NCBI GenBank assembly: GCA_964619725.1
Contig: CAZUFC010000155.1
Location: forward strand, 1-17,830
Direction: 5' to 3'
DNA: 17,830 nt
From: an uncultured bacterium
GTDB taxonomy: Bacteria > CSSED10-310 > CAZUFC01
The notes beneath the pieces are model-generated. The model saw nothing but the letters and a program-made list of their open reading frames with translations, was not told where the DNA came from and searched no databases. A program made the position numbers and the translations under genes. Shown here piece after piece: positions 88-17,830 of the stretch; position 1 is the stretch's first letter; every line of letters begins with the position of its first letter.

Positions 88-184
88 GCAGTAAAATAAT
101 GCCCAACGCCGTTTTTGATCCGGGACGCTTTGTTTCAGCAATCGGGGTCGGGCATTATTTATAATGACCGAAGATTTCATCAAC

Positions 185-211
185 CATGAAGCGCATGAAG
201 AACATGAAGAT
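185..211 (+). repeat. Three tandem 9-bp repeats CATGAAGNN
   Basis: CATGAAG at 185, 194 and 203. Confidence 0.6.
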
Positions 212-229
212 TGAGTGATTTAGCAGGCG

Positions 230-322
230 ATGACCATACGCCGGTCGACAGCGCAAATTTATGCCCATATCGTTCTTTCAAAGAAAAACAGTCTCTTGCC
301 GGCATCAAAGGAAAAACAATAA
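230..322 (+). pseudogene. Degenerate 5' fragment of an IS200/IS605-family (Y1/HUH, RAYT-like) transposase
   Basis: Translates MTIRRSTAQIYAHIVLSKKNSLL..., resembling the Y1_Tnp N-terminus (MPQSxxxIYxHIVFSTKNR). Stops at TAA 320-322. Homologous to 5101-5150. Confidence 0.5.
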
Positions 323-484
323 ACCGTCTATATATCCGTGATTCCATCCGCAAAGTTGATTAAGCGTCCCTGACTTTCAGGATTTGATCCATATCCAGGA
401 TTGTGATATGAAAATAACCAGATGCCTTAAAATGAGCGTCGTCTGAGGATTAAAGATGGTGAAACGTCGGATTCAGTTCAATGC

Positions 485-3400
485 ATGCCTGGGGGAACGT
501 TATTAATTATGGGAAAATGTGATCTTTTCATCAGTTACAGTTCGCACGACCGTGATTGGGTGAAAACATTCGTGTCGCACCTGGAGCAATTGGGCGTCAG
601 GGTATGGTGGGACGTTAACAGAATTAAATACGGCGAGTCATTTATATCGGCTATTGATGCCGGATTAACCGAAAGCGGCCGGCTTATTCTCATCGTCAGT
701 CCGGCGAGTATGGCATCGCCCTGGGTGAGAAGGGAGTATACCGACGTCATGGTTCGATATCCCAACTTCGATCAGACCGGACGCATTATTCCCGTTATTA
801 TCAGCGAAGCATCCCGTCCACCCTTGTCCAGCGACTGTCAGTACATAAACCTTACTTACGCTGACTCTGAAAAATACCGCATGGGAATGCAAAAACTGAT
901 ATCCGGCTATTTTCCGCACTTGAAGGAGGGCTTGGCGACAGCTTCACTGCAACTGCCGTCACCTCCCAATTATGAAATAAACGGCAAATTGTGGACTCAG
1001 GCGGTAAACCTTTTCTCGGAATTGTCTGAAACCCGGTGGGATCGTAAACTTCTTTACGATAAGCTTCCCCCTGACATAAAACGGAAGAGCAAAGATATTC
1101 TGGAAAACAAAAACAAGGAAATATCGTCAACCGCCTTCCTTTTCTATTCGGAATGTTACAGGATGAAAAAACTAAAAAGCATTCTTGCCGTGCAGGATAT
1201 TGAGGAGGTATTGCGTTCGAGAAATCCTGATGAATATGAATCGCTGCTGAAGGAGCTGGACAAGTCAGAACCGCATCCGGCGATCAAATCGGAATGGATA
1301 AGGAAAATAGAGGAATATCTGAAGAGTCTGGAAATGCTCTGTAGAATCGATCTTTCGTCTCGTATTTTTCCCGAAGCCCATGATTTGCCGTTGCAGAAGG
1401 TCTACGTGGATTTATATACGGAGCCTTATGATCGAGCAAGGGATTTCGAGAGCGGCGCATGTCGTACGGATTATTTTCGTCATTTATCGTCAAAGGAACG
1501 CAGCGAATACCGGACAGGGACTCTGGAGAATTTCCTGAAAAGCGGAGAATCGCGGTGCTGGACGCTGCAGGGCGAGCCGGGCAGCGGTAAAACGACATTG
1601 CTGCTCGACATGTGTCGCAGGATGATAGGAGACGCTCGTGAAACCATTTCCGCAGGCGACCGGAAAGAAATACAGGCTAAGCTGCTGATCCCTGTTTATG
1701 TCCGCATAGGAGCGTGGAGGCGCCGCCCGGAGAGCATAATCGGATATTTGGACCGTGAATTCAGGGAAATGGACCTGGAGGGGACCGGCGAATTTTTGAA
1801 AACAGAATCTGATGCCGGCAGGGTCGTCTGGTTCTTCGACGGACTGGATGAAGTCGATCCGAAAGAAACCTTTGATGCCGCTGAAAAGATATCGATTCAC
1901 AGCCAGAGATTCAAACAGTGCAAAATAGTCATGACATCCCGCATTTTCGGATACGAGAAACCCCCGGACGCTGAAGACGCTGTTTTTAAAGAACTTAAAC
2001 TTTTGCCTCTTCGCCGTGAAGAAAGGAAGGAACTGCTGGAAGAGCTCCTGCAGGATAAACGTTCCGTTGAAGATGTTCTTGACGAAATAGACCGTCACAG
2101 CACGCTCAGAGAACTTTCCGGGAATCCCTTCTTCCTGACGATGATTGCAATCGCTGCATTACAACCAAAAATAGACGACGAATACAAACCTCTCCCCGTT
2201 CGACGTTCTGAATTGCTCGAAAGAGTCATCGACCGCCTTATGCTCGGCCTTCCGGGACTGAGAGAGAAGGGCCCCTTTCCCGATCATCAGCGGGTCTTGA
2301 GCTTCCTGAAGGAACTGGCGCTGGACCTGATGATGCATTATACTCCGCCCTACAGAGCGAATGAAGTGACGGAACGAATCATTTTCCTGGACAGCAAAGC
2401 GGACGGAGAATGCCGGCTGCTTAAAAACTATCAGAATGAAGCGGCAAAGTTTATAAGAAGTCTGGCCGCTCATACTTTCCTCATAATGTTCTTTGGAAAG
2501 TCCGAGAACGTATGCCATTTCCTGCACCGCTCCATACAGGAATACTTGGCGGCTTGCGCCCTTCACAGCCTGGAAGAAGAAAAATGGATGGAAATAGCCG
2601 AGTCGCTTCTTCCCGATAAAAGTGATGAAGCGACAGCCGCAAAGCTGGGACGCTGGGCAGAAATCTTCGGATACCTGGCCGGTATGGCGGACGACCCGAA
2701 CGCATGGCTGAAGAAACTGATGCATATAAACCAAGACCTGGGACTGAGAGCCCTTTCCACTACAGAAAACGTCACCGAAGAAACCCTGGAAACCATGCTC
2801 GACTGGGTGCAGGGCGGCTCAGAATGGGAAAAACGAAGAAAAATAATCGAATCGATACCCCTGCAGAAAAAGCTGGGATGCTCCAAATCAGCAGTCGATC
2901 TGCTGGATACGATAAGACGAAAAACAACTCACGGCGCAGACCTCTTTTTCATTTCCAGTACATTCGATCACATCGCAAATAGCGAAAACGTGGATGCTGA
3001 AGTGAAAAAATACGCCCTGGACCGTAAAAGAAATATTTTCGAAAGAGAACAGAAAGTCATAACGCCGCCGGATTTCTTGAAAACAATAGTCATTAAGGGC
3101 AAGGAACATGAATACTGGAGCAGAATACCGGCGGGAAATTTCCTGATGGGCAGCCCCAAAGACGAGGAGGGGCGATATGATGATGAACCGGAAAACCTGC
3201 CCGTCAGCCTTTCCGAATTCCACATGGGAAAAGTCCCTGTAACCAACCGTGATTATGAACTGTTCGATCCATCTCATAAAGACGACAGGGCTTTCGGCGA
3301 TAAAGAGACGGAAATGCATCCCGCGGTGAATGTGACCTGGTATGAGGCGATCATGTTCAGCCGGTGGGCGACTGAAATACTGAAAAGAAGGGGCGATCTG

Positions 3401-3835
3401 GACGACGGTGAAATAATAACGCTTCCGTCGGAGGCGCAATGGGAATACGCCTGCAGGGCCGGCAAGAAAACGATGTTCTGGTCGGGCGATAAGGAAGAAG
3501 ACCTGGATAGAGTCGGATGGTATGACGGAAATTCAGGCGGCAGGACGCATGCCGTGGGTGAAAAATCGGCGAATCCACGGGGGTTGTTCGACATGCACGG
3601 TAATGTATGGGAATGGTGCCTGGATGAATGGAGCGGACATTATAAAAGATCAGGAAATGACCAGATCGTCGGAAAAGTGGAAAACATTTCCGCCAGGCGG
3701 TCCATCCGGGGCGGCTCCTGGGGCAATGATCCGCGTGACTGCCGCTCCGCTTTCCGTAGCGGCAGGTATCCCGATGTCCGCTTCTTCAATCAGGGATTCC
3801 GCGTTGTCCGGGTCCGTCGCGGCCCCCAGGCTTGA
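485..3835 (+). CDS. TIR - helical linker - NACHT NTPase - FGE-sulfatase (CLec-fold) protein; NLR-like sensor and probable DGR target
   Basis: TIR motifs DLFISYS and SPWVRRE (catalytic-position Glu present); Walker A GEPGSGKT; Walker B FFDGLDE; NACHT GNPFFL and FLHRSIQEYLAA; FGE-sulfatase motifs FLMGS, LPSEAQWEYACRAG, GLFDMHGNVWEWC, RGGSW, GFRV. The true start may be ATG 509 (GGGGGA upstream). Confidence 0.93.
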   Translation: MPGGTLLIMGKCDLFISYSSHDRDWVKTFVSHLEQLGVRVWWDVNRIKYGESFISAIDAGLTESGRLILIVSPASMASPWVRREYTDVMVRYPNFDQTGRIIPVIISEASRPPLSSDCQYINLTYADSEKYRMGMQKLISGYFPHLKEGLATASLQLPSPPNYEINGKLWTQAVNLFSELSETRWDRKLLYDKLPPDIKRKSKDILENKNKEISSTAFLFYSECYRMKKLKSILAVQDIEEVLRSRNPDEYESLLKELDKSEPHPAIKSEWIRKIEEYLKSLEMLCRIDLSSRIFPEAHDLPLQKVYVDLYTEPYDRARDFESGACRTDYFRHLSSKERSEYRTGTLENFLKSGESRCWTLQGEPGSGKTTLLLDMCRRMIGDARETISAGDRKEIQAKLLIPVYVRIGAWRRRPESIIGYLDREFREMDLEGTGEFLKTESDAGRVVWFFDGLDEVDPKETFDAAEKISIHSQRFKQCKIVMTSRIFGYEKPPDAEDAVFKELKLLPLRREERKELLEELLQDKRSVEDVLDEIDRHSTLRELSGNPFFLTMIAIAALQPKIDDEYKPLPVRRSELLERVIDRLMLGLPGLREKGPFPDHQRVLSFLKELALDLMMHYTPPYRANEVTERIIFLDSKADGECRLLKNYQNEAAKFIRSLAAHTFLIMFFGKSENVCHFLHRSIQEYLAACALHSLEEEKWMEIAESLLPDKSDEATAAKLGRWAEIFGYLAGMADDPNAWLKKLMHINQDLGLRALSTTENVTEETLETMLDWVQGGSEWEKRRKIIESIPLQKKLGCSKSAVDLLDTIRRKTTHGADLFFISSTFDHIANSENVDAEVKKYALDRKRNIFEREQKVITPPDFLKTIVIKGKEHEYWSRIPAGNFLMGSPKDEEGRYDDEPENLPVSLSEFHMGKVPVTNRDYELFDPSHKDDRAFGDKETEMHPAVNVTWYEAIMFSRWATEILKRRGDLDDGEIITLPSEAQWEYACRAGKKTMFWSGDKEEDLDRVGWYDGNSGGRTHAVGEKSANPRGLFDMHGNVWEWCLDEWSGHYKRSGNDQIVGKVENISARRSIRGGSWGNDPRDCRSAFRSGRYPDVRFFNQGFRVVRVRRGPQA
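3695..3790 (+). other. DGR variable region VR1 (core), followed by an IMH-like invariant GC-rich tail (~3791-3830)
   Basis: Against VR2 there are 17 mismatches, 16 of them at codon positions 1-2, mostly in NNC/NNT codons, in the RGGSW...GFR segment of the CLec domain. Confidence 0.8.
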
Positions 3836-4032
3836 TGATTGGATATTGGTACGGACAGATGCGGACATTTACGGAGAAAAATCACCGGAAATATCCGCCA
3901 AAAGTATGGCTTGTACACGAAAAAAGGTGCGGACAAATGCGGCTATCGGACAACATTCGGCTAAATCTTGGCCGCAAATTTCCGCAAATGGCCGGATATG
4001 GCCGTATCTAGCCGTACCTGTCCAAAAGGAGG
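3836..4032. other. Conserved structured element downstream of VR1 (10-bp-periodic CGG/CCG imperfect inverted repeat)
   Basis: CGG at 3852/3862/3872 and CCG at 3972/3982/3992/4002/4012. About 11 mismatches to 8107-8303. Confidence 0.6.
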
Positions 4033-4368
4033 AATCGCTCCCTTTCAGCGTCATAGAGAACGCTGACACGGGCAGAAGATTGGATGTTCATAACGATTTT
4101 TTAACTGCTGGAACTGCCGGTTCATTCTTGCAGGTCCTCAACGATGTTGTTCGCTTTATTTTGTAAATCGGGACTTTTACGCAGAGGGAGCATTATCATC
4201 CCGGCATTTCCTGGACTGATCAAGCCATGCATGCAATTTTACGGCTTTAAACTTCCGTGGTGATGAAAATTCGGGCATTTTCGATAAAAACGGTAACTTC
4301 CGATTCATATTATCTTCCGGGAAGCAATATACGCAATGCTGAAATTACCGGTTACGGAGTATTGCCCG

Positions 4369-4662
4369 TCATTTGGACTGTTTCTTAGGTATTAATTCTA
4401 TCAATTTTCTCAGCGTTTTATTCACTGATTCAGAATCCGGAAAAAAAGGCCTGACGTCCGGGTCCAACATTACAGCGCCCTCTTCGAGTTTATAGTTTTT
4501 CACTACTAGATTACCCTCTTTTTTACGTATCTTTACGGAATGACCGGCTCTGTAATCCTTAAAATATTTACCCCTCTCGCCGCCTTTCAACTTTGAAAAA
4601 TCATATTCTTCCCTTATGTCACGATCTTTTGCTTTATTATTTTCTGAATTATCCTTCTTCAT
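4369..4662 (-). CDS. Putative antitoxin, BrnA-like partner of BrnT
   Basis: 97 aa with EYDFSKLKGGERGKY and LDPDV..FFPDSESVN..LR motifs. Overlaps the end of the brnT-like gene. Confidence 0.75.
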   Translation of the reverse strand: MKKDNSENNKAKDRDIREEYDFSKLKGGERGKYFKDYRAGHSVKIRKKEGNLVVKNYKLEEGAVMLDPDVRPFFPDSESVNKTLRKLIELIPKKQSK

Positions 4663-4933
4663 AATATTTCCGTTCCTTGCGCGTTGCTTTTCGAGAACTG
4701 ATGATACGGATATTTTTATTTCTTTCTGTATGGATAACGACCAAAATTCTGCCTTTTGCTGAAATTCCCAGGTTAATATATCTCTCCTCTATATCAGAAT
4801 GTTCTTCATCAGGAAACGTTAGTAAAAACGGATCGTTATACGCTGTTTTTGCCTCTTCGAAGCCGACTCCATGTCTTTTAATGTTTCTGTCATTTTTTTC
4901 CTCATCCCATTCAAATAATAATTTCATCATCAT
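4649..4933 (-). CDS. brnT: BrnT-family (DUF497) ribonuclease toxin
   Basis: FEWDEEKNDRNIKRHGVGFEEA...EERYINLG...IRIISSRKATRKERKYY is the canonical BrnT pattern. The start could be any of three tandem ATGs. Confidence 0.92.
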   Translation of the reverse strand: MMMKLLFEWDEEKNDRNIKRHGVGFEEAKTAYNDPFLLTFPDEEHSDIEERYINLGISAKGRILVVIHTERNKNIRIISSRKATRKERKYYEEG

Positions 4934-5022
4934 TTCCGCAGTAAATTCAGAGTTTCCTCAATCGAGCTTTCAGTCAACGATCCACTATATTAAAGAATCC
5001 TGTTTTTTTCAAGAGAGCGAAG

Positions 5023-5058
5023 CCCAGTGTTAAGCGACCCAAGGGAGCGTAACCCCGG
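5023..5058. repeat. REP-like element, copy of 20-55
   Basis: CCCAGTGTTAAGCG...GAGCGTAACCCCGG versus CCTGGGGTTAAGCG...GAGCGCAACCCCAGG. Confidence 0.55.
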
Positions 5059-5100
5059 TTTACGATGTTAAAAACACGAATCATGAGGATTTAACAGGAT

Positions 5101-5230
5101 ATGACCATGCCCCAATCAACAGCACAAATTTATCCTTATATGTTTTTCAACGGAACCGTTAACCGATTTTAAACGACATTGATATCCTTCTCATTAAATT
5201 AATATCCAGCCGGCATAGTCGACAATCAAC
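5101..5230 (+). pseudogene. Second degenerate IS200/IS605-family tnpA 5' fragment
   Basis: ATG CCC CAA TCA ACA GCA CAA ATT TAT = MPQSTAQIY, then frameshifted segments reading FST, PILNDIDI and AGIVDN. Aligns with 230-280. Confidence 0.55.
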
Positions 5231-5463
5231 CATTGATGAAAAATGCTTTTTTACAGTTCACAATTCGAGGTATTATCGCCTCAATGACCGACCTTTTATG
5301 GGCGTAGAGCGACGGCGGCGATGTTGCGACGATTTCTATTAATCCGTCCGATCATTCCAAAGAATCGGGTTCAGTATCGTAATCGCGCATTCAATAAAAC
5401 AAAATCGCTTCCTCCGCGTTTTTATTTCATAGGAAGGCTTGCGAACCCAATAATCTTAAGGAA

Positions 5464-8106
5464 TTGCTTTCCATAAAAAAGATCGAGGGAGTATTGAAAA
5501 AAAAGGAACCGGAAAAGCTGGACTCCCTGTTGAAGGAGCTGGAAAAATTCAAAAAGCCGAAACAATATAAAAGGGAGACGGCGAAAAAAATCGAGGCTTA
5601 TCTGAAACGCCTGGAAATGCAATGCGAATGCGATTTTGAATCCCGCCGTATTCCCGGCGCTGCGGAATTGACGTTGGAAGACCTTTACGTGGAGCTGCAG
5701 GCGGAGCGATTGCATCGTCCTAAAGAGCGTCCGGAGGAAGCCGTCCGTGACTCGTCATGTGTTCCCGATGAAGAGTTAAAAAATCGTGCTGGTTTTATAC
5801 GAGGAAAACTGGATGATTTTTTAACAAGCGAAATATCGCTTCGATGGACGCTTCAGGGCGAGCCTGGGAGCGGAAAAACCACATTATTGCTGAAAATATG
5901 CGACGATATGATTAAGGAAGCCCGCCGAATCATCCGTAAAGGCGATACGAAGGAGTTGCAGGAGCGTCTTGTCATTCCGGCATACGTTTCCATAGGAGCC
6001 TGGAGGCGAAGTCGAACGGAACTTCTTGAGTATCTGGATCAGGAATTCAGTGAACTGGGCGTTCGGGGAGCGGGCGAAATTCTCCGTACTGAAGCTGATG
6101 CCGGCAGGGTGGTCTGGTTGTTCGACGGGCTGGATGAAGTCGATCCTCAAGATACCCTTTCTGCGGTTAAACGCATAGCGATACACGTGAAAACATTCGA
6201 TCAATGCAAAGCGGTCATGACTTCCCGTATTTTCGGTTACAAAAAACCGCCCGGCGCCGGATTCAAAGAACTGAAACTTCTGCCCCTGGAAGGGGAAAAC
6301 CGCTTTAATCTACTAAAAAATCACCTGAAAGGCGAACGACCCGCGGAAGAAGTATTGGACGAAATAGACCGTAACCGAACCTTAAAGGAACTGGCCGGCA
6401 ATCCTTTCTTCCTGACCATGATTGCGGTCGCCGCATTGAAGAAAAAAAACAAGAAACAATACGAACCGTTGCCGGTAAGACGTTCGGAACTGCTTAAAAA
6501 GGTCATCGACGAACTTTTGTCAGGCGGACCGGGACCGAGACCCGAAGGCCCCTTCCCCAATCGCCCGCTGGCGCAGCGCTTGCTCGAAGACCTGGCGCTT
6601 GAACTGATGCGAAATTTTACGCCTCCTTATGAAGCCTTCGACGTCAATGAAAGGCTGATGATCATCGACAACCGGAAGCATGAAGACTCGAGGTTGCTGC
6701 CGGAAGCTTACAGGAACGATCCTTCGAGGTTCATCAGCAGCATAGCCAATCATAATTACCTGATGACGTTCCACGGGGAATCCCGGAAATACTGCCGCTT
6801 CCTCCACCGCTCCGTGCAGGAATACCTGGCGGCATGCTCATTGAAAAGAATGGACGAACCCACATGGAAAAAAATCGCTGAATCGCTGCTTCCTGAAAAA
6901 CGGGACAAGATAAGTTCGTCAAACCTGGGACGCTGGGCTGAAGTTTTCGGATACCTGGCCGGAGAGATGAAGAATCCGAATGAACTGCTGGAAAAACTGA
7001 TGAAAATCAACAGCGATCTGGGACTGCGCGCCCTTTCCACAGCAGACAATGTTACTGGGGATACCCTGGCGGCAATGATGGGCCTGGTCAAAGGCGGCGA
7101 CAAATGGCAAGCCAGGCGGGAAATCATCGAATCCATACCCGACCAATTGGGATACACGGAAACAGCGGTCGACCTTCTGGATAAGATACGTCGCGAAACA
7201 AAACCCACGAACGGCGCCGACCTGTTTTTCATTTCCGGGACTTATGACCTCATACGAAAGAAGACTGACGATAACGCTGTAAAACGTCACGCTTTGATTC
7301 ATAAGGAAAAAATATTCCATCATCTGGACGAACCGCAGCCGGATTTCTTGAAAACAATAGTCATTAAGGGCAAGGAACATGAATACTGGAGCAGAATACC
7401 GGCGGGAAATTTCCTGATGGGCAGCCCCAAAGACGAGGAGGGGCGATATGATGATGAACCGGAAAACCTGCCCGTCAGCCTTTCCGAATTCCACATGGGA
7501 AAAGTCCCTGTAACCAACCGTGATTATGAACTGTTCGATCCATCTCATAAAGACGACAGGGCTTTCGGCGATAAAGAGACGGAAATGCATCCCGCGGTGA
7601 ATGTGACCTGGTATGAGGCGATCATGTTCAGCCGGTGGGCGACTGAAATACTGAAAAGAAGGGGCGATCTGGACGACGGTGAAATAATAACGCTTCCGTC
7701 GGAGGCGCAATGGGAATACGCCTGCAGGGCCGGCAAGAAAACGATGTTCTGGTCGGGCGATAAGGAAGAAGACCTGGATAGAGTCGGATGGTATGACGGA
7801 AATTCAGGCGGCAGGACGCATGCCGTGGGTGAAAAATCGGCGAATCCACGGGGGTTGTTCGACATGCACGGTAATGTTGATGAATGGTGCCTGGATGAAT
7901 GGAGCGACAAATATAAAGAAACAGGAAATGATCCGGTAGTCGGCAATGTTCAAAACATTTCCGCCGGGCGGTCCATCCGGGGCGGCTCCTGGTTCAATGA
8001 TCCGCGTAACTGCCGCTCCGCTTTCCGTTTCGACTGGGATCCCGGGGACCGCAGCGACGATCAGGGATTCCGCGTTGTCCGGGTCCGTCGCGGCCCCCAG
8101 GTTTGA
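5464..8106 (+). CDS. NACHT - FGE-sulfatase (CLec) protein, paralog of 485-3835, 5'-truncated (no TIR); probable DGR target, possibly a pseudogene
   Basis: GEPGSGKT, LFDGLDE, GNPFFL, FLHRSVQEYLAA and an identical CLec scaffold. In-frame homology continues upstream of the TTG to ~5398, bounded by TAA at 5395. Confidence 0.88.
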   Translation: MLSIKKIEGVLKKKEPEKLDSLLKELEKFKKPKQYKRETAKKIEAYLKRLEMQCECDFESRRIPGAAELTLEDLYVELQAERLHRPKERPEEAVRDSSCVPDEELKNRAGFIRGKLDDFLTSEISLRWTLQGEPGSGKTTLLLKICDDMIKEARRIIRKGDTKELQERLVIPAYVSIGAWRRSRTELLEYLDQEFSELGVRGAGEILRTEADAGRVVWLFDGLDEVDPQDTLSAVKRIAIHVKTFDQCKAVMTSRIFGYKKPPGAGFKELKLLPLEGENRFNLLKNHLKGERPAEEVLDEIDRNRTLKELAGNPFFLTMIAVAALKKKNKKQYEPLPVRRSELLKKVIDELLSGGPGPRPEGPFPNRPLAQRLLEDLALELMRNFTPPYEAFDVNERLMIIDNRKHEDSRLLPEAYRNDPSRFISSIANHNYLMTFHGESRKYCRFLHRSVQEYLAACSLKRMDEPTWKKIAESLLPEKRDKISSSNLGRWAEVFGYLAGEMKNPNELLEKLMKINSDLGLRALSTADNVTGDTLAAMMGLVKGGDKWQARREIIESIPDQLGYTETAVDLLDKIRRETKPTNGADLFFISGTYDLIRKKTDDNAVKRHALIHKEKIFHHLDEPQPDFLKTIVIKGKEHEYWSRIPAGNFLMGSPKDEEGRYDDEPENLPVSLSEFHMGKVPVTNRDYELFDPSHKDDRAFGDKETEMHPAVNVTWYEAIMFSRWATEILKRRGDLDDGEIITLPSEAQWEYACRAGKKTMFWSGDKEEDLDRVGWYDGNSGGRTHAVGEKSANPRGLFDMHGNVDEWCLDEWSDKYKETGNDPVVGNVQNISAGRSIRGGSWFNDPRNCRSAFRFDWDPGDRSDDQGFRVVRVRRGPQV
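7966..8061 (+). other. DGR variable region VR2 (core), followed by an IMH-like tail (~8062-8101)
   Basis: Encodes GRSIRGGSWFNDPRNCRSAFRFDWDPGDRSDD versus RRSIRGGSWGNDPRDCRSAFRSGRYPDVRFFN in VR1. Confidence 0.8.
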
Positions 8107-8303
8107 TGATTGGATATTGGTACGGACAGATGCGGATATTTACGGAGAAAAATCACCGGAAATATCCGCAGAAAGTATGGCTTGTACACGCAAAAAGGTG
8201 CGGACAAGTGCGGCTATCGGACAACATTCGGCTAAATCCTGGCCGCAAACTTCCGCAAATGGCCGGATATGGCCGTATTCAGCCGTACCTGGCCGAAAGG
8301 AGG
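8107..8303. other. Conserved structured element downstream of VR2, ending in an AGGAGG ribosome-binding site
   Basis: Near-identical to 3836-4032. Confidence 0.6.
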
Positions 8304-8315
8304 AGACGCGATATA

Positions 8316-8648
8316 TTGTTGAGCGTTAAAGAAACCGCCGCAATGTTGGGTTTCAGCGAACGTCACGTCCGGTATCTGCTCTTGAATGAGTTCATACCGG
8401 GTCGTAAGCGGGGGAAATCCTGGGTTATACGGCGGTCTGATCTGGTTTCCGTTTTTCCCGAACTGCAGAGCGACGTTGAGAAAAAGATCGGCGAAATACG
8501 CGAGGTGACCGAAAAGGTCCTGGAAAAAACGGCGAAAAAAGCCGGCGGACGATCTTTCCGGGCGATACGCGATATGAGAGTGATACAGAAAGCGGCTGCG
8601 GCGTTTAATGAGATCAATGATCTTAAAAATTCAGGATTGTACATCTGA
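8316..8648 (+). CDS. Excisionase-like helix-turn-helix (HTH_17) protein, possibly C-terminally truncated
   Basis: AGGAGG at 8298-8303 precedes TTG 8316 (or 8319). LSVKETAAMLGFSERHVRYLL...IPGRKRGKSWVIRRSDL is a typical HTH_17 pattern. The ORF-track start at 8103 runs through the non-coding repeat. Confidence 0.75.
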   Translation: MLSVKETAAMLGFSERHVRYLLLNEFIPGRKRGKSWVIRRSDLVSVFPELQSDVEKKIGEIREVTEKVLEKTAKKAGGRSFRAIRDMRVIQKAAAAFNEINDLKNSGLYI

Positions 8649-8814
8649 AGGATCAAACGAGCCGGAGACTATGGATGACAATTCAGCAAAACAATTAACG
8701 AACGCAGAAACAATCAGGAAATCACGCCGTTGCTTCCCGCATTTAATAATTAAAATCTCCCCGATTGCGGCTTTTGAGGTTACAATTCGAAAGAATCGTC
8801 TGTCATTTTGTTTC

Positions 8815-8935
8815 GATTTCGATCACGATTGCTATACCGATGCCGATACCGATTGCGAATCCGACCCCGATACCGATACCGACACCGATACCGATTGCGA
8901 TACCGACCCCCGATACCGACACCGATACCGATTAC
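8815..8935 (+). repeat. Tandem array of about 20 degenerate hexamers (consensus GAYNCC/GATACC)
   Basis: GATTTC GATCAC GATTGC TATACC GATGCC GATACC ... GATTAC, with one 1-nt slip at ~8911. Confidence 0.9.
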
Positions 8936-9229
8936 TGAAAAAAACTGTCAAACGTTTTGAAAGAAGTGTAACCACTGTTTGATCAGTCCCTAAAAAAGTA
9001 AAATCCCGGCTTAATCAGTCGCAAAAAAATGTAACCTCGAAACACGGATATCTGATCATCTCCGGAATTTATAAAGCAAACAAAATGAATTCTGTTGTCC
9101 TTTCCGGCCCGGATTTCTCATATAAAAATTGATATCCGTCTCACCGGGCCGTCAATTTCGATCTGATCGGAAAACATCACGGTTGCGTTACAATATTATT
9201 GATTTTCGGTTAAAAATCCGAAAAAATAA

Positions 9230-14484: not shown

Positions 14485-14814
14485 TCCGGGATACATACAA
14501 ATATTCATTTGGAATGATCAAACGGGGTTTGCGCTTTTTAATGAAACGCTTGAATGATTGAAATCCTCTGTTTCTTTCATCAATATAGCCCTTTGTTTCG
14601 GGTCGGGGTCGGGATAGAATAATCACGAGGAGATAAGCGTTGTCCTGATAATATTTTCAAAGCTTTGTAATTATTCAAGGCTGCAAAAATTGCTGCATCG
14701 AAACGCGGATATCTGATCAGCGCCGAAATACGGAAAAATTGTAACCGCAAAAGACGCATTTTTGATCAATGCCGATTTTTGGAAATTTTACTCTTCGTAT
14801 GATCAGGGCCTTAT

Positions 14815-14891: not shown

Positions 14892-16145
14892 ATGAAGATC
14901 AAGGACTGTTTCAATGCTTCAATAGTTTTTCCGCTATTGGTTTTATGGTTTATAACAATATATGCGGACACGGTGGGCGCTTCCACGATTCAGGGACATT
15001 TTTACCTGGAAAACCAAACGGACCATTCAGGCATTAAGGTGATCCTGGGCGCCTCCCAAACTATACCTGCCTTCACTTTTTCCGGCATCGGCATTCTGGT
15101 TTTGATGCTGGGTTTTCTTTTGAAAGGAGCTCGGCGCAAGATGAAGGCAATAGGCCTGGGGCTTCTTCTAACCGGGGTTTATTGTTATGCGGACGTGCAT
15201 GACGAGACGGCGACGGAGTCTGACGGCAGCTTTGTTTTTACGGACGTTTCTCACGGGGTTTACCGAATCGAAGCATCCCGGGAATGTTATAAAACGGAAA
15301 AAATCGACCCGGTTAACGTTTATTCCGATTTAATCACGCCTGGTCCGATCACATTGCCTGATATGAATCTGTATAATGAATCGCGCATGCCCTGTAATTT
15401 GCTGTGGATAGATCATGCTCAAATCGATTATAATAATAATTCGTGTCCTCATACCTTCACCGGCGAGTTGTCCTGTCTCTGCAGCGGCAACGGAGCGGGC
15501 GGCGTTCCTTTTTTACCGGCGGATTTCGCCGATGGAATGGCGGACGGCTATGTCCTCGAATTATCCGTGTCCGAACCTGTCGGAGGTTCACACTGGAATT
15601 ATTGGGTTTCCGCTTATCCCGAAGATTATGGATGTTCCGGCCGTTTCTCCTATTATTCCGCCTACGGAAGCTGCATGCGCAGTTTTGTTCGTGGAGCGGA
15701 TATCGGAGGAGAGCCGGGGTACGAAGACCTGCCTGTCATATCTCATATGGAACCGGAACCGACGGCTTACTGGATAACATATCTGATCTATAATGCAGAA
15801 TTTTGCTATTATATGAATTCTTTACCTCACACTTATACCGGTAAAATCGGATGGCTTGAAACAGGACACGGCGCCGGAGAATACAGTTTTCTCTGTCCCA
15901 TCATAGAAGACGGACAGGCGTATGGATATCAATATTACCTGGAGGCGGGCGATTATTACAATGGAACTTACCACAGCTTCTGGGCTGCCGCCTGGCCCAT
16001 TGAATACGGCGACGATACTATCATGAGCTTCTACGTCGACGACTCCGGCATAATCAGAAGCGGCGACGTCGACGGCGAAGCCGGTTCAATTGAACTGCCC
16101 GTCGCCGAACCTTATGATCCCGTCTGCCCGCCCCGGCCGTTCTAG
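14892..16145 (+). CDS. Exported/membrane protein: carboxypeptidase-regulatory-like beta-sandwich interrupted by an IPTL-CTERM-like hydrophobic insert, plus two pilin/DUF2950-like repeats
   Basis: Signal-peptide-like N-terminus; IPAFTFSGIGILVLMLGFLLKGARRK; TATESDGSFVFTDVSHGVYRIEASRECY; duplicated A..Y..NS.PHT[FY]TG...L..G.GAG...DG.A.GY...W..A.P..YG motif; good RBS. Confidence 0.75.
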   Translation: MKIKDCFNASIVFPLLVLWFITIYADTVGASTIQGHFYLENQTDHSGIKVILGASQTIPAFTFSGIGILVLMLGFLLKGARRKMKAIGLGLLLTGVYCYADVHDETATESDGSFVFTDVSHGVYRIEASRECYKTEKIDPVNVYSDLITPGPITLPDMNLYNESRMPCNLLWIDHAQIDYNNNSCPHTFTGELSCLCSGNGAGGVPFLPADFADGMADGYVLELSVSEPVGGSHWNYWVSAYPEDYGCSGRFSYYSAYGSCMRSFVRGADIGGEPGYEDLPVISHMEPEPTAYWITYLIYNAEFCYYMNSLPHTYTGKIGWLETGHGAGEYSFLCPIIEDGQAYGYQYYLEAGDYYNGTYHSFWAAAWPIEYGDDTIMSFYVDDSGIIRSGDVDGEAGSIELPVAEPYDPVCPPRPF

Positions 16146-17429: not shown

Positions 17430-17574
17430 ATTAACCTCCCATCCGCATTGATGAATTTTTAACTGTTGAATTGCCAAGGATTGGTTAAACCCTCTTCCCG
17501 CTTTTTTGCGGGCTCACCCATAACCATCGTTAAATATAGCATATGATTCAATGTGTGTCAATTTGCGGGATAAA

Positions 17575-17830
17575 TAGCGCCTGTCCACAAACTCGAATCT
17601 CGATTCAAAATTTAATGCTGGACAGCCACTTGGGTTTTTGATCCATAAACGGGCGAATTTATCTTAAAGCAATTAAGACAATGATTTGCGAGGTAGGGGT
17701 ATTGCTTATACGTTGACTGAGCAAATCCGCAGCCTGACGCAGTATTAGGGAAAATTCGCCGTTTATGGACAAAAACTAGATAGTGTCTGTCCACAAACTC
17801 GAATCTCGATTCAAAATTTAATGCTGGACA
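17575..17830. mobile_element. Tandem MITE/REP-like non-autonomous elements; second copy cut by the window edge
   Basis: Exact 44-bp direct repeat at 17581-17624 and 17787-17830. Terminal inverted repeats TAG-N4-TGTCCACAAAC ... GTTTATGGACA-N4-CTA. Internal ~25-bp inverted repeat at 17634-17660 / 17752-17776. Confidence 0.6.

Follow-up and report, generated by a model that had tools for sequence, protein, structure and literature searches.

Can genes be recognised as targets of a diversity-generating retroelement (DGR) when neither a template repeat (TR) nor a reverse transcriptase (RT) lies beside them? This question is raised by two genes that stand in tandem on the forward strand of contig C155, here called ORF1 and ORF2 (ORF, open reading frame). 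The contig, which is the entire stretch of DNA analysed (17,830 bp; hereafter, the window), belongs to a metagenome-assembled genome (MAG) of 9.17 Mb in 344 contigs, with a completeness of 90.9% and a contamination of 6.5%. An earlier note on this DNA, made from the letters alone, had proposed that both genes are NLR-like and carry hypermutated variable regions (VRs) of the DGR type in their C-terminal C-type lectin (CLec) domains. Our analysis indicates that the 96-bp stretches concerned are very likely DGR-written VRs of an NLR-like pair. The fuller explanation, in which both VRs were retrohomed from one common template into a mosaic locus that encodes such a pair, is in our judgement probable, and a DGR acting on these VRs at the present time is possible, with the balance leaning slightly against it.

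Architecture of the two genes

Domain searches assigned a STAND/NACHT-type NTPase and a C-terminal FGE-sulfatase domain, which has the CLec fold, to both proteins (Table 1), and the GEPGSGKTT P-loop was conserved in ORF1 and ORF2 alike. The two NTPases passed the threshold of the NPHP3_N model and scored just under that of the NACHT model (24.1 bits for ORF1 and 26.0 bits for ORF2, cut-off 26.7). In line with the proposed CLec assignment, the best solved relative of this domain was the DGR variable protein TvpA (2Y3C), both by sequence (E 8e-21) and by Foldseek comparison of structures (E 3e-14, TM 0.71).

The N-termini of the two proteins differ. ORF1 begins with a TIR domain, for which PADLOC returned weak matches to TIR models, among them TIR-NLR at E 6.5e-4. 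No TIR domain or other recognised effector was found in ORF2, neither by domain search nor by alignment to ORF1, and none of the PADLOC models matched it. Since the alignment of the two proteins (64% identity) begins only at residue 233 of ORF1, and since the reading frame upstream of the TTG start of ORF2 is closed at 5398, ORF2 is, as judged from its sequence, the same receptor as ORF1 minus the TIR domain. The description of both genes as NLR-like thus holds for their shared STAND/NACHT-CLec layout and fails for ORF2 with regard to an N-terminal effector.

The existence of two separate genes was supported by Logan contigs and unitigs from four microbial-mat runs of one study (X1-X4), which were aligned at a likeness of at least 80% and are of low depth (4-15). 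In the independent assembly of run X1, the two 3′ variants were present as separate 242-nt unitigs with depths of 6.4 and 8.1 (the latter being that of ORF2), and the 540-bp block that both genes share upstream of them as one collapsed unitig with a depth of 14.9. The pair is therefore real and not an artefact of the assembly analysed here. In run X2, a single 4x contig over 3668-4100 links ORF2-type variable sequence to the downstream flank of ORF1, and an extra ATG follows 3176; the joined contig could stem from another strain in which the copies have recombined, or from an artefact of the assembly graph, and it was not used as evidence.

Table 1. Features of the window, with the domains and the paired segments of ORF1 and ORF2
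Feature	Position	Strand	Remarks
ORF1	485-3835	+	1116 aa; gene caller's form 1108 aa
ORF1 TIR_2 domain	aa 15-129		E 5e-25 (Pfam); N-terminus also matches PADLOC TIR models
ORF1 STAND/NACHT NTPase	aa ~346-524		NPHP3_N 31.8 bits, above the cut-off of 24.8
ORF1 FGE-sulfatase (CLec-fold) domain	aa 878-1109		E 4e-43 (Pfam); C-terminal
540-bp block	3067-3606	+	Partner 7338-7877; CLec scaffold from the domain start onward
88-bp stretch	3607-3694	+	Partner 7878-7965; 19 mismatches
VR1 (candidate variable region of ORF1)	3695-3790	+	Partner VR2
G+C-rich tail	3791-3830	+	Partner 8062-8101; 40 nt identical
Conserved non-coding stretch	3836-4033		Partner 8107-8304; ~198 bp, 94.4% identical
ORF adjoining the BrnT gene	4369-4662	-	No family matched
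BrnT-type toxin gene	4649-4933	-	BrnT_toxin E 7e-30
ORF2	5464-8106	+	880 aa, TTG start; gene caller's form 870 aa
ORF2 STAND/NACHT NTPase	aa ~129-288		NPHP3_N 29.0 bits, above the cut-off of 24.8
ORF2 FGE-sulfatase domain	aa 642-873		E 6e-44 (Pfam)
VR2 (candidate variable region of ORF2)	7966-8061	+	Partner VR1
HTH_17 (excisionase/MerR-type) DNA-binding gene	8316-8648	+	HTH_17 E 2e-9

Mutational signature of the candidate variable regions

The two genes were compared at an offset of 4271, where all 12 codon pairs listed in the earlier note were present and its counts were reproduced. VR1 and VR2 differ by 17 mismatches in 96 bp, distributed over the codon positions as 9:7:1, so that 16 of the 17 fall at positions 1 and 2. 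Each of the 12 changed codons is non-synonymous, with no synonymous change in the 32 codons of the region. Nine of the changed codons are of the form NNY with a constant third base, as expected from template codons of the AAY type; in five, positions 1 and 2 are both changed and the third base is constant, in one more the changes are at positions 2 and 3, and the codons between the variable ones are perfectly conserved. The probability of finding at most one of 17 mismatches at position 3 was 3.3e-4 against the background given by the remainder of the two paralogues, in which mismatches were distributed as 210:146:316, and 0.0096 against a uniform share of one third. Transversions outnumbered transitions (25 versus 12) among all 37 mismatches in 3605-3835. 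This VR-to-VR comparison accordingly carries the adenine signature that had been claimed for the 96-bp differences. Within the template reconstructed in the earlier note, the codons AAT at 3728-3730, where both copies share GAT, and AAC at 3752-3754, where both share TTC, found no support.

The segments flanking the VRs were invariant, as had also been stated. Upstream, the 540-bp block is 100% identical between the genes and would represent a recent gene-conversion tract. Downstream, the G+C-rich tail occupies the position of the initiation of mutagenic homing (IMH) site, and the run of identity that would match a TR begins at 3681. Apart from the variable sites, no difference was found at any non-adenine position of the VRs or in the tail, all non-variable positions of 3696-3830 being identical. 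Because these positions are identical while the adjacent non-coding DNA after the stop codons has diverged by 5.6%, the comparison suggests that the last homing was recent.

The 88-bp stretch between the 540-bp block and the VRs, which the earlier note had missed, shows a different spectrum. Its 19 mismatches are distributed over the codon positions as 6:4:9 and change 13 codons, four of them synonymously, and 24 adenines are shared between the copies, as opposed to just seven in the 96-bp stretch. This distribution fits that of the paralogue background (chi-square p = 0.997), and the identity of 78% lies inside the range of 43-80% observed in 41 windows of 88 columns upstream of 3060 (mean 63%, sd 7.9%). 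The stretch encodes a loop of variable length that extends from the GNVWEWC motif to the RGGSW motif and contains indels in the paralogue alignment. In an AlphaFold model based on 11 paralogous domains (predicted local distance difference test, pLDDT, 70; predicted template modelling score, pTM, 0.78), residues 191-221 in domain numbering, which cover the beginning of the VR and most of this loop (184-212), had a pLDDT below 50; a model from the single sequence reached a pLDDT of just 31. Given the background-type spectrum and the loose, indel-prone loop, the 88-bp stretch is therefore read as ordinary paralogue divergence outside the hypermutated region.

Sibling DGRs in the same genome

A search of the MAG with RVT_1 gave 12 matches. 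Three complete DGRs, on contigs C9, C26 and C280, consist of an RT of 334-358 aa beside a TR of 128-137 nt, with VRs. In the C26 system, all VR-TR mismatches of the two VRs (18 and 19) are at TR adenines. In the C280 system, whose VRs lie on C280, C324 and C25, 19, 17 and 19 mismatches are at adenines and two, three and one at other letters, respectively. In the C9 system, the VR at 106999-107126 shows 13 mismatches at adenines and two others, and the second VR, at 104315-104434, has 8 of its 11 mismatches at TR adenines. The targets have the architectures Metallophos-NACHT-FGE, DUF4062-NACHT-FGE (two) and DUF4062-FGE. These siblings resemble the window in combining an FGE-type CLec domain with NACHT, in the place of the VR within the domain, in the homologous variable codons and in the G+C-rich tail downstream of GFR; they differ from it in having TRs of their own, whose identity to the predicted template of the window is 59-69%. 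At the C9 and C26 loci, the TR and RT lie between the two targets.

The sibling systems delimit what a template for the window would look like. Their TRs contain 17-23% A, begin 18-27 nt 5′ of the RGG codons, which is homologous to ~3681-3692 in the window, and carry a terminal G+C-rich stretch after GFR. Pairs of sibling VRs differ at 16-23 sites and the window pair at 17. In alignments of 100-112 columns with just 21-27 adenines in them, made with an A-substituted query that biases them toward coincidence, the variable sites of the window fell on sibling TR adenines in 12 of 16 cases for C280 (p = 6e-7) and in 10 of 16 cases each for C26 and C9. A by-eye codon alignment to the C280 TR, anchored at TGG, TGC-CGY, CCS, CGC and GGN-TTY-CGC, again gave 12 of 16. 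Identity to this TR was higher for the predicted template, with every mismatch set to A (68.6%), than for either VR (64.8%).

The C25 gene, a distant paralogue within the C280 family, is 26-63% identical upstream and ~40% identical further downstream, and rises to 78-90% identity across three 50-column windows that span the TR-homologous tract. Read from these identities, the mosaic, which is of the kind proposed below for the window, shows how retrohoming would homogenise the VR between diverged genes in this genome.

Further DGR-related sequences were detected in the MAG. A DGR-type RT fragment at C207:2-478 is cut by the contig start and lies behind a dispersed repeat, and another, at C27:66920-67441, keeps the IGNLTSQ motif with its N-terminal half gone; either could be what is left of a further DGR or belong to one that was incompletely assembled. 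None of the RTs of the MAG is linked to the VRs of the window. In a NACHT-FGE gene at C8:44962-49068, the C-terminal stretch is rich in Asn (AAC and AAT codons) and looks like a template rather than like a mutated VR. The stretch matches the C26 TR at 74% identity and exists only once in the MAG; the gene could be a target that has not been mutated or a template that is itself coding.

Proposed origin and function of the variable regions

Based on these results, we propose that one common TR of ~150 nt, corresponding to ~3681-3830, would have been reverse-transcribed with adenine misincorporation, and that the cDNA would have taken the place of the 3′-terminal part of both genes as far as the G+C-rich tail. 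The locus would then be a mosaic of a converted tract (3067-3606), an unconverted 88-bp remnant (3607-3694) and a template-reset tract (3681-3830) that is identical except at template adenines, with gene conversion over 3067-3606 keeping both CLec scaffolds identical. The ligand-binding face of the CLec fold is predicted to consist of the rewritten residues. When a foreign molecule binds to this diversified tip, the NTPase may oligomerise in an NTP-dependent manner, upon which the TIR domain would deplete NAD+ or signal cell death, so that the cell would be killed or arrested. The effector-less ORF2 could act as a second sensor or as a partner of ORF1.

Search for the template repeat and alternative explanations

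The following results weigh against this proposal. The first group concerns the template itself, for which the earlier note had advised a search of the genome and metagenome for a TR next to a DGR-class RT, naming the lack of both as what would speak against it; DGR RTs are indeed present in the MAG, and the cognate TR is absent from the data searched. BLAST with a word size of 7 and both VRs as queries found no cognate TR in the MAG, the only matches beyond the two copies being FGE genes at ~64%. With the predicted template, in which every mismatch was set to A, the best other match in the MAG was the non-cognate C280 TR (68.6% identity). The aligned Logan contigs of the four runs showed, at the variable sites, VR2 letters alone and no adenine-bearing third variant, a result from low-depth contigs that shows neither absence of the TR nor absence of diversification. 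In 40 relatives, of which none is related more closely than at the level of the phylum, the conserved FGE motif alone was matched. Metagenome, genome and viral contigs were scanned for a pattern in which adenines and variable sites were set to N, and none matched; phage records gave none either, and plasmid records gave two partial matches that covered 18% of the query. With regard to population data, VR1 and VR2 were the only alleles in the contigs of the four runs, and such contigs drop rare variants; the VR is uncovered in X3 and X4, and the 3′ half of VR1 in X2.

The second group concerns the pattern of differences. VR1 and VR2 have seven adenines in common, an unchanged AAT GAT among them, compared with two to four in the sibling VR pairs. 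Besides the query bias mentioned above, N-masked local alignment to the sibling TRs extended over only 12-41 columns, with 3 of 3 sites on adenines for C280 and no sites aligned for C26 and C9. The 88-bp stretch is more diverged than both of its flanks, 19 mismatches being improbable at the downstream rate (p = 3e-7). Finally, retrohoming does not account for the 198-bp stretches downstream of the stop codons being 94% identical, a degree of identity that fits poorly with the 88 bp as an old remnant.

Two candidate templates were tried and rejected. Neither VR can have served as the template of the other, since A occupies just 5 of the 17 sites in VR1 and likewise in VR2, and the sibling TRs were ruled out by their 59-69% identity to the predicted template. 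The MAG being 90.9% complete and split into 344 contigs, its search does not show that the TR is absent from the genome; it is at loci of precisely this kind that the MAG is broken up, the C280 and C324 contigs being 4.5 and 2.5 kb long. The TR-RT cassette may be unassembled, present in part of the population only, or lost, all three being live options. A search of the CLec domain against a set of 5.8 billion proteins listed, among the 120 best matches and apart from the two proteins of the window, none above 45% identity, and it yielded no further VR alleles.

Loss of the cassette leads to the alternative that survives best, namely that a DGR wrote the two tips in the past, that its TR and RT have since disappeared, for instance through replacement by the segment bearing the BrnT gene, and that the alleles are now frozen. 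It shares its origin with the proposal above and differs in the present state only. It is compatible with the missing TR in the MAG and in the contigs of the four runs, and with VR1 and VR2 being identical to the MAG wherever the runs cover them. Moreover, the position held by TR and RT between the targets at C9 and C26 is occupied here by a segment with a GC content of 0.38-0.40 and the BrnT gene, and truncated DGR-type RTs do exist in the MAG. Opposed to this are the identity of all non-adenine VR positions and of the tail, compared with 5.6% divergence in the adjacent non-coding DNA, which argues for recent homing, as well as the incompleteness of the MAG and the inability of contigs to reveal rare variants. 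We regard frozen alleles as plausible, if not what we would expect.

A longer VR, templated by 3607-3830 (~224 nt), would attribute the 19 upstream mismatches to adenine mutagenesis as well. It would account for the excess in the 88-bp stretch, in which ~5 mismatches would be expected at the downstream rate; at 14 of the 19 sites, one or the other copy has A, and the 5′ boundary of DGR mutagenesis is, according to the account in PMC5758913, not fixed. Nevertheless, 24 shared adenines next to 19 mismatches would imply a template of ~49% A that had mutated at a much lower rate than the 3′ half (Fisher p = 0.044), which is at odds with the A content, the length and the starting point of the sibling TRs. 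In addition, the nine mismatches at position 3 and the four synonymous codons reproduce the background spectrum exactly, and several of the implied template codons would be AAA, which could mutate to stop codons. We thus consider an extended VR unlikely.

An origin without any retroelement would invoke point mutation under strong diversifying selection at the ligand-binding face, combined with gene conversion elsewhere. The failure to find a cognate TR and the 540-bp block of 100% identity, where gene conversion would clearly have been active, are in its favour. It does not readily account for the codons changed at two positions at once, for the lack of synonymous changes, for the predominance of transversions or for the perfectly conserved intervening codons; furthermore, the variable sites fall on adenines in real TRs of this very genome, and the pattern is indistinguishable from that of the confirmed VR pairs of the MAG. 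Taken together, such an origin is quite unlikely.

An artefact of assembly or binning that placed two strain alleles of a single gene in tandem is hardly credible: the MAG is derived from a metagenome and contains 6.5% contamination, and the X2 contig joins VR2-type sequence to the flank of copy 1, but the upstream halves differ (63% mean identity, a TIR domain in one only), the downstream neighbours differ too, and the depth of the shared block in X1 matches the sum of the two VR unitigs.

Conserved non-coding stretch and neighbouring genes

The ~198-bp stretch that follows the stop codon of each gene, likewise missed in the earlier note, was found at only these two loci in the MAG. It contains CGG/CCG motifs in helical phase, spaced ~10-11 bp apart, with a periodicity of 10.5-11 bp that 1-9 of 500 shuffles attained. 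When folded as single-stranded DNA, the stretch scored better than shuffled sequences (z = -3.75). The stretch terminates in AAAGGAGGA, and the second copy then leads into the HTH_17 gene, whose start was placed according to AAAGGAGGA as its ribosome-binding site. The stretch may serve as an array bound by protein or as an element related to homing.

The spacer that separates ORF1 from ORF2 is A+T-rich and holds the BrnT gene and its adjoining ORF. On the 3′ side of ORF2, the HTH_17 gene is followed by genes for a LexA-like protein and a type IIG restriction-methylase. Within a 124-aa ORF (8608-8982), GATACC-rich units of 6 and 12 nt form a tandem array (8811-8906). A 45-nt intergenic repeat occurs in three copies that are 71-80% identical, one 5′ of the LexA-like gene (9024-9068) and two 5′ of a 417-aa ORF at 14892 (14685-14729 and 14734-14778); these repeats may be shared operators. 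An Rfam scan of the window returned no families, and the numbers of sites in promoter and terminator scans were not above those in shuffles.

Both contig ends (1-104 and 17571-17830) consist of short dispersed repeats resembling miniature inverted-repeat transposable elements, which occur on dozens of other contigs of the MAG, and a 54-nt unit at 17571 is present again at 17777. The assembly breaks at the contig ends because of these repeats, and their sharing supports the membership of the contig in the genome of this MAG. As to the identity of the genome, the RpoB locus at C180:6115-7668 is 63-68% identical to those listed matches whose names assign them to Nitrospirota or to a member of it, the best other match being at 72%. 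A second RpoB-like locus, at C78:14917-15852, lies in an open frame of 1903 aa on a contig that also bears an RT of 339 aa; contamination or an unusual gene fusion could underlie the presence of these two loci.

Discussion

The architecture of the window genes has already been published. Dore et al. (2024; PMC10907252) describe DGR-diversified STAND/NACHT-CLec proteins of multicellular bacteria as putative antigen sensors, for instance at DGR 3 of Thiohalocapsa PB-PSB1 and at the clade 5D loci, and the involvement of DGR-diversified FGE/CLec sensors in NTPase-centred conflict systems had been noted in 2020 (PMC7159879). According to the former account, NACHT-CLec targets commonly come as two per locus, some with TIR, some targets are diversified in trans, and one locus has its TR and RT only in structural variants seen by long reads. 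Non-adjacent and remote DGR targets are likewise known, a Treponema DGR serving remote targets (PMC5758913).

The window shares with the loci of PMC10907252, in their general description, the fusion of a central NACHT/STAND NTPase with a CLec domain at the C-terminus, several DGRs per genome, and the existence of loci that are incomplete or served in trans. It differs from them, at the same level of description, in that the locus has neither TR nor RT, and the MAG none that is cognate; in that the targets stand in tandem instead of flanking a TR-RT pair; and in that the second copy is effector-less and the CLec scaffolds are 100% identical over 540 bp. What is particular to the window is thus the lack of a cognate TR and RT at the locus and in the MAG, the tandem pair with an effector-less copy, the homogenised scaffold and the 198-bp stretch that accompanies each gene; finer detail of the published loci may include comparable cases.

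Like the window proteins, TvpA of Treponema denticola (2Y3C) carries its VR C-terminally in an FGE-type CLec fold; unlike them, it is a stand-alone chain of 294 residues with no NTPase or TIR domain, and its TR and RT are known. The characterised bacterial NACHT/Avs members have fixed sensors of the repeat type or of other types, and are not known to use hypermutated CLec domains. ORF1 resembles the antiviral STAND proteins of this group in the tripartite layout of effector, NTPase and sensor, as outlined in PMC10907252, and an anti-phage role for ORF1 is only predicted.

A more far-reaching reading, which we offer as speculative and rather unlikely, would see in the locus a working unit of two receptors. 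In such a unit, an effector-bearing and an effector-less NLR would share an identical scaffold, maintained by gene conversion, so that one template could serve both, each with its own DGR-written specificity. The effector-less copy would act as a sensor or decoy, comparable to paired plant NLRs; the TR-RT cassette would be polymorphic or mobile, and the CGG/CCG array would serve target recognition or control by the HTH protein. If this were true, the capacity for hypermutation would be a trait of the population and not of each genome.

Knowledge of how DGRs or NLR-like proteins work is unchanged by this locus. If retrohoming from one common template did shape the two genes, as we consider probable, a TIR-NACHT-CLec pair from a deep-branching mat bacterium would join the class of hypermutated antigen sensors. 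Such targets would be recognisable from VR-to-VR comparison alone when the assembly misses the template, in cases like the present one, where tools based on the TR, such as searches of the myDGR type, would miss the genes. The locus would then provide a concrete case for the question of whether targets outlive their retroelement, and for the joint shaping of paralogous receptors by gene conversion and retrohoming.

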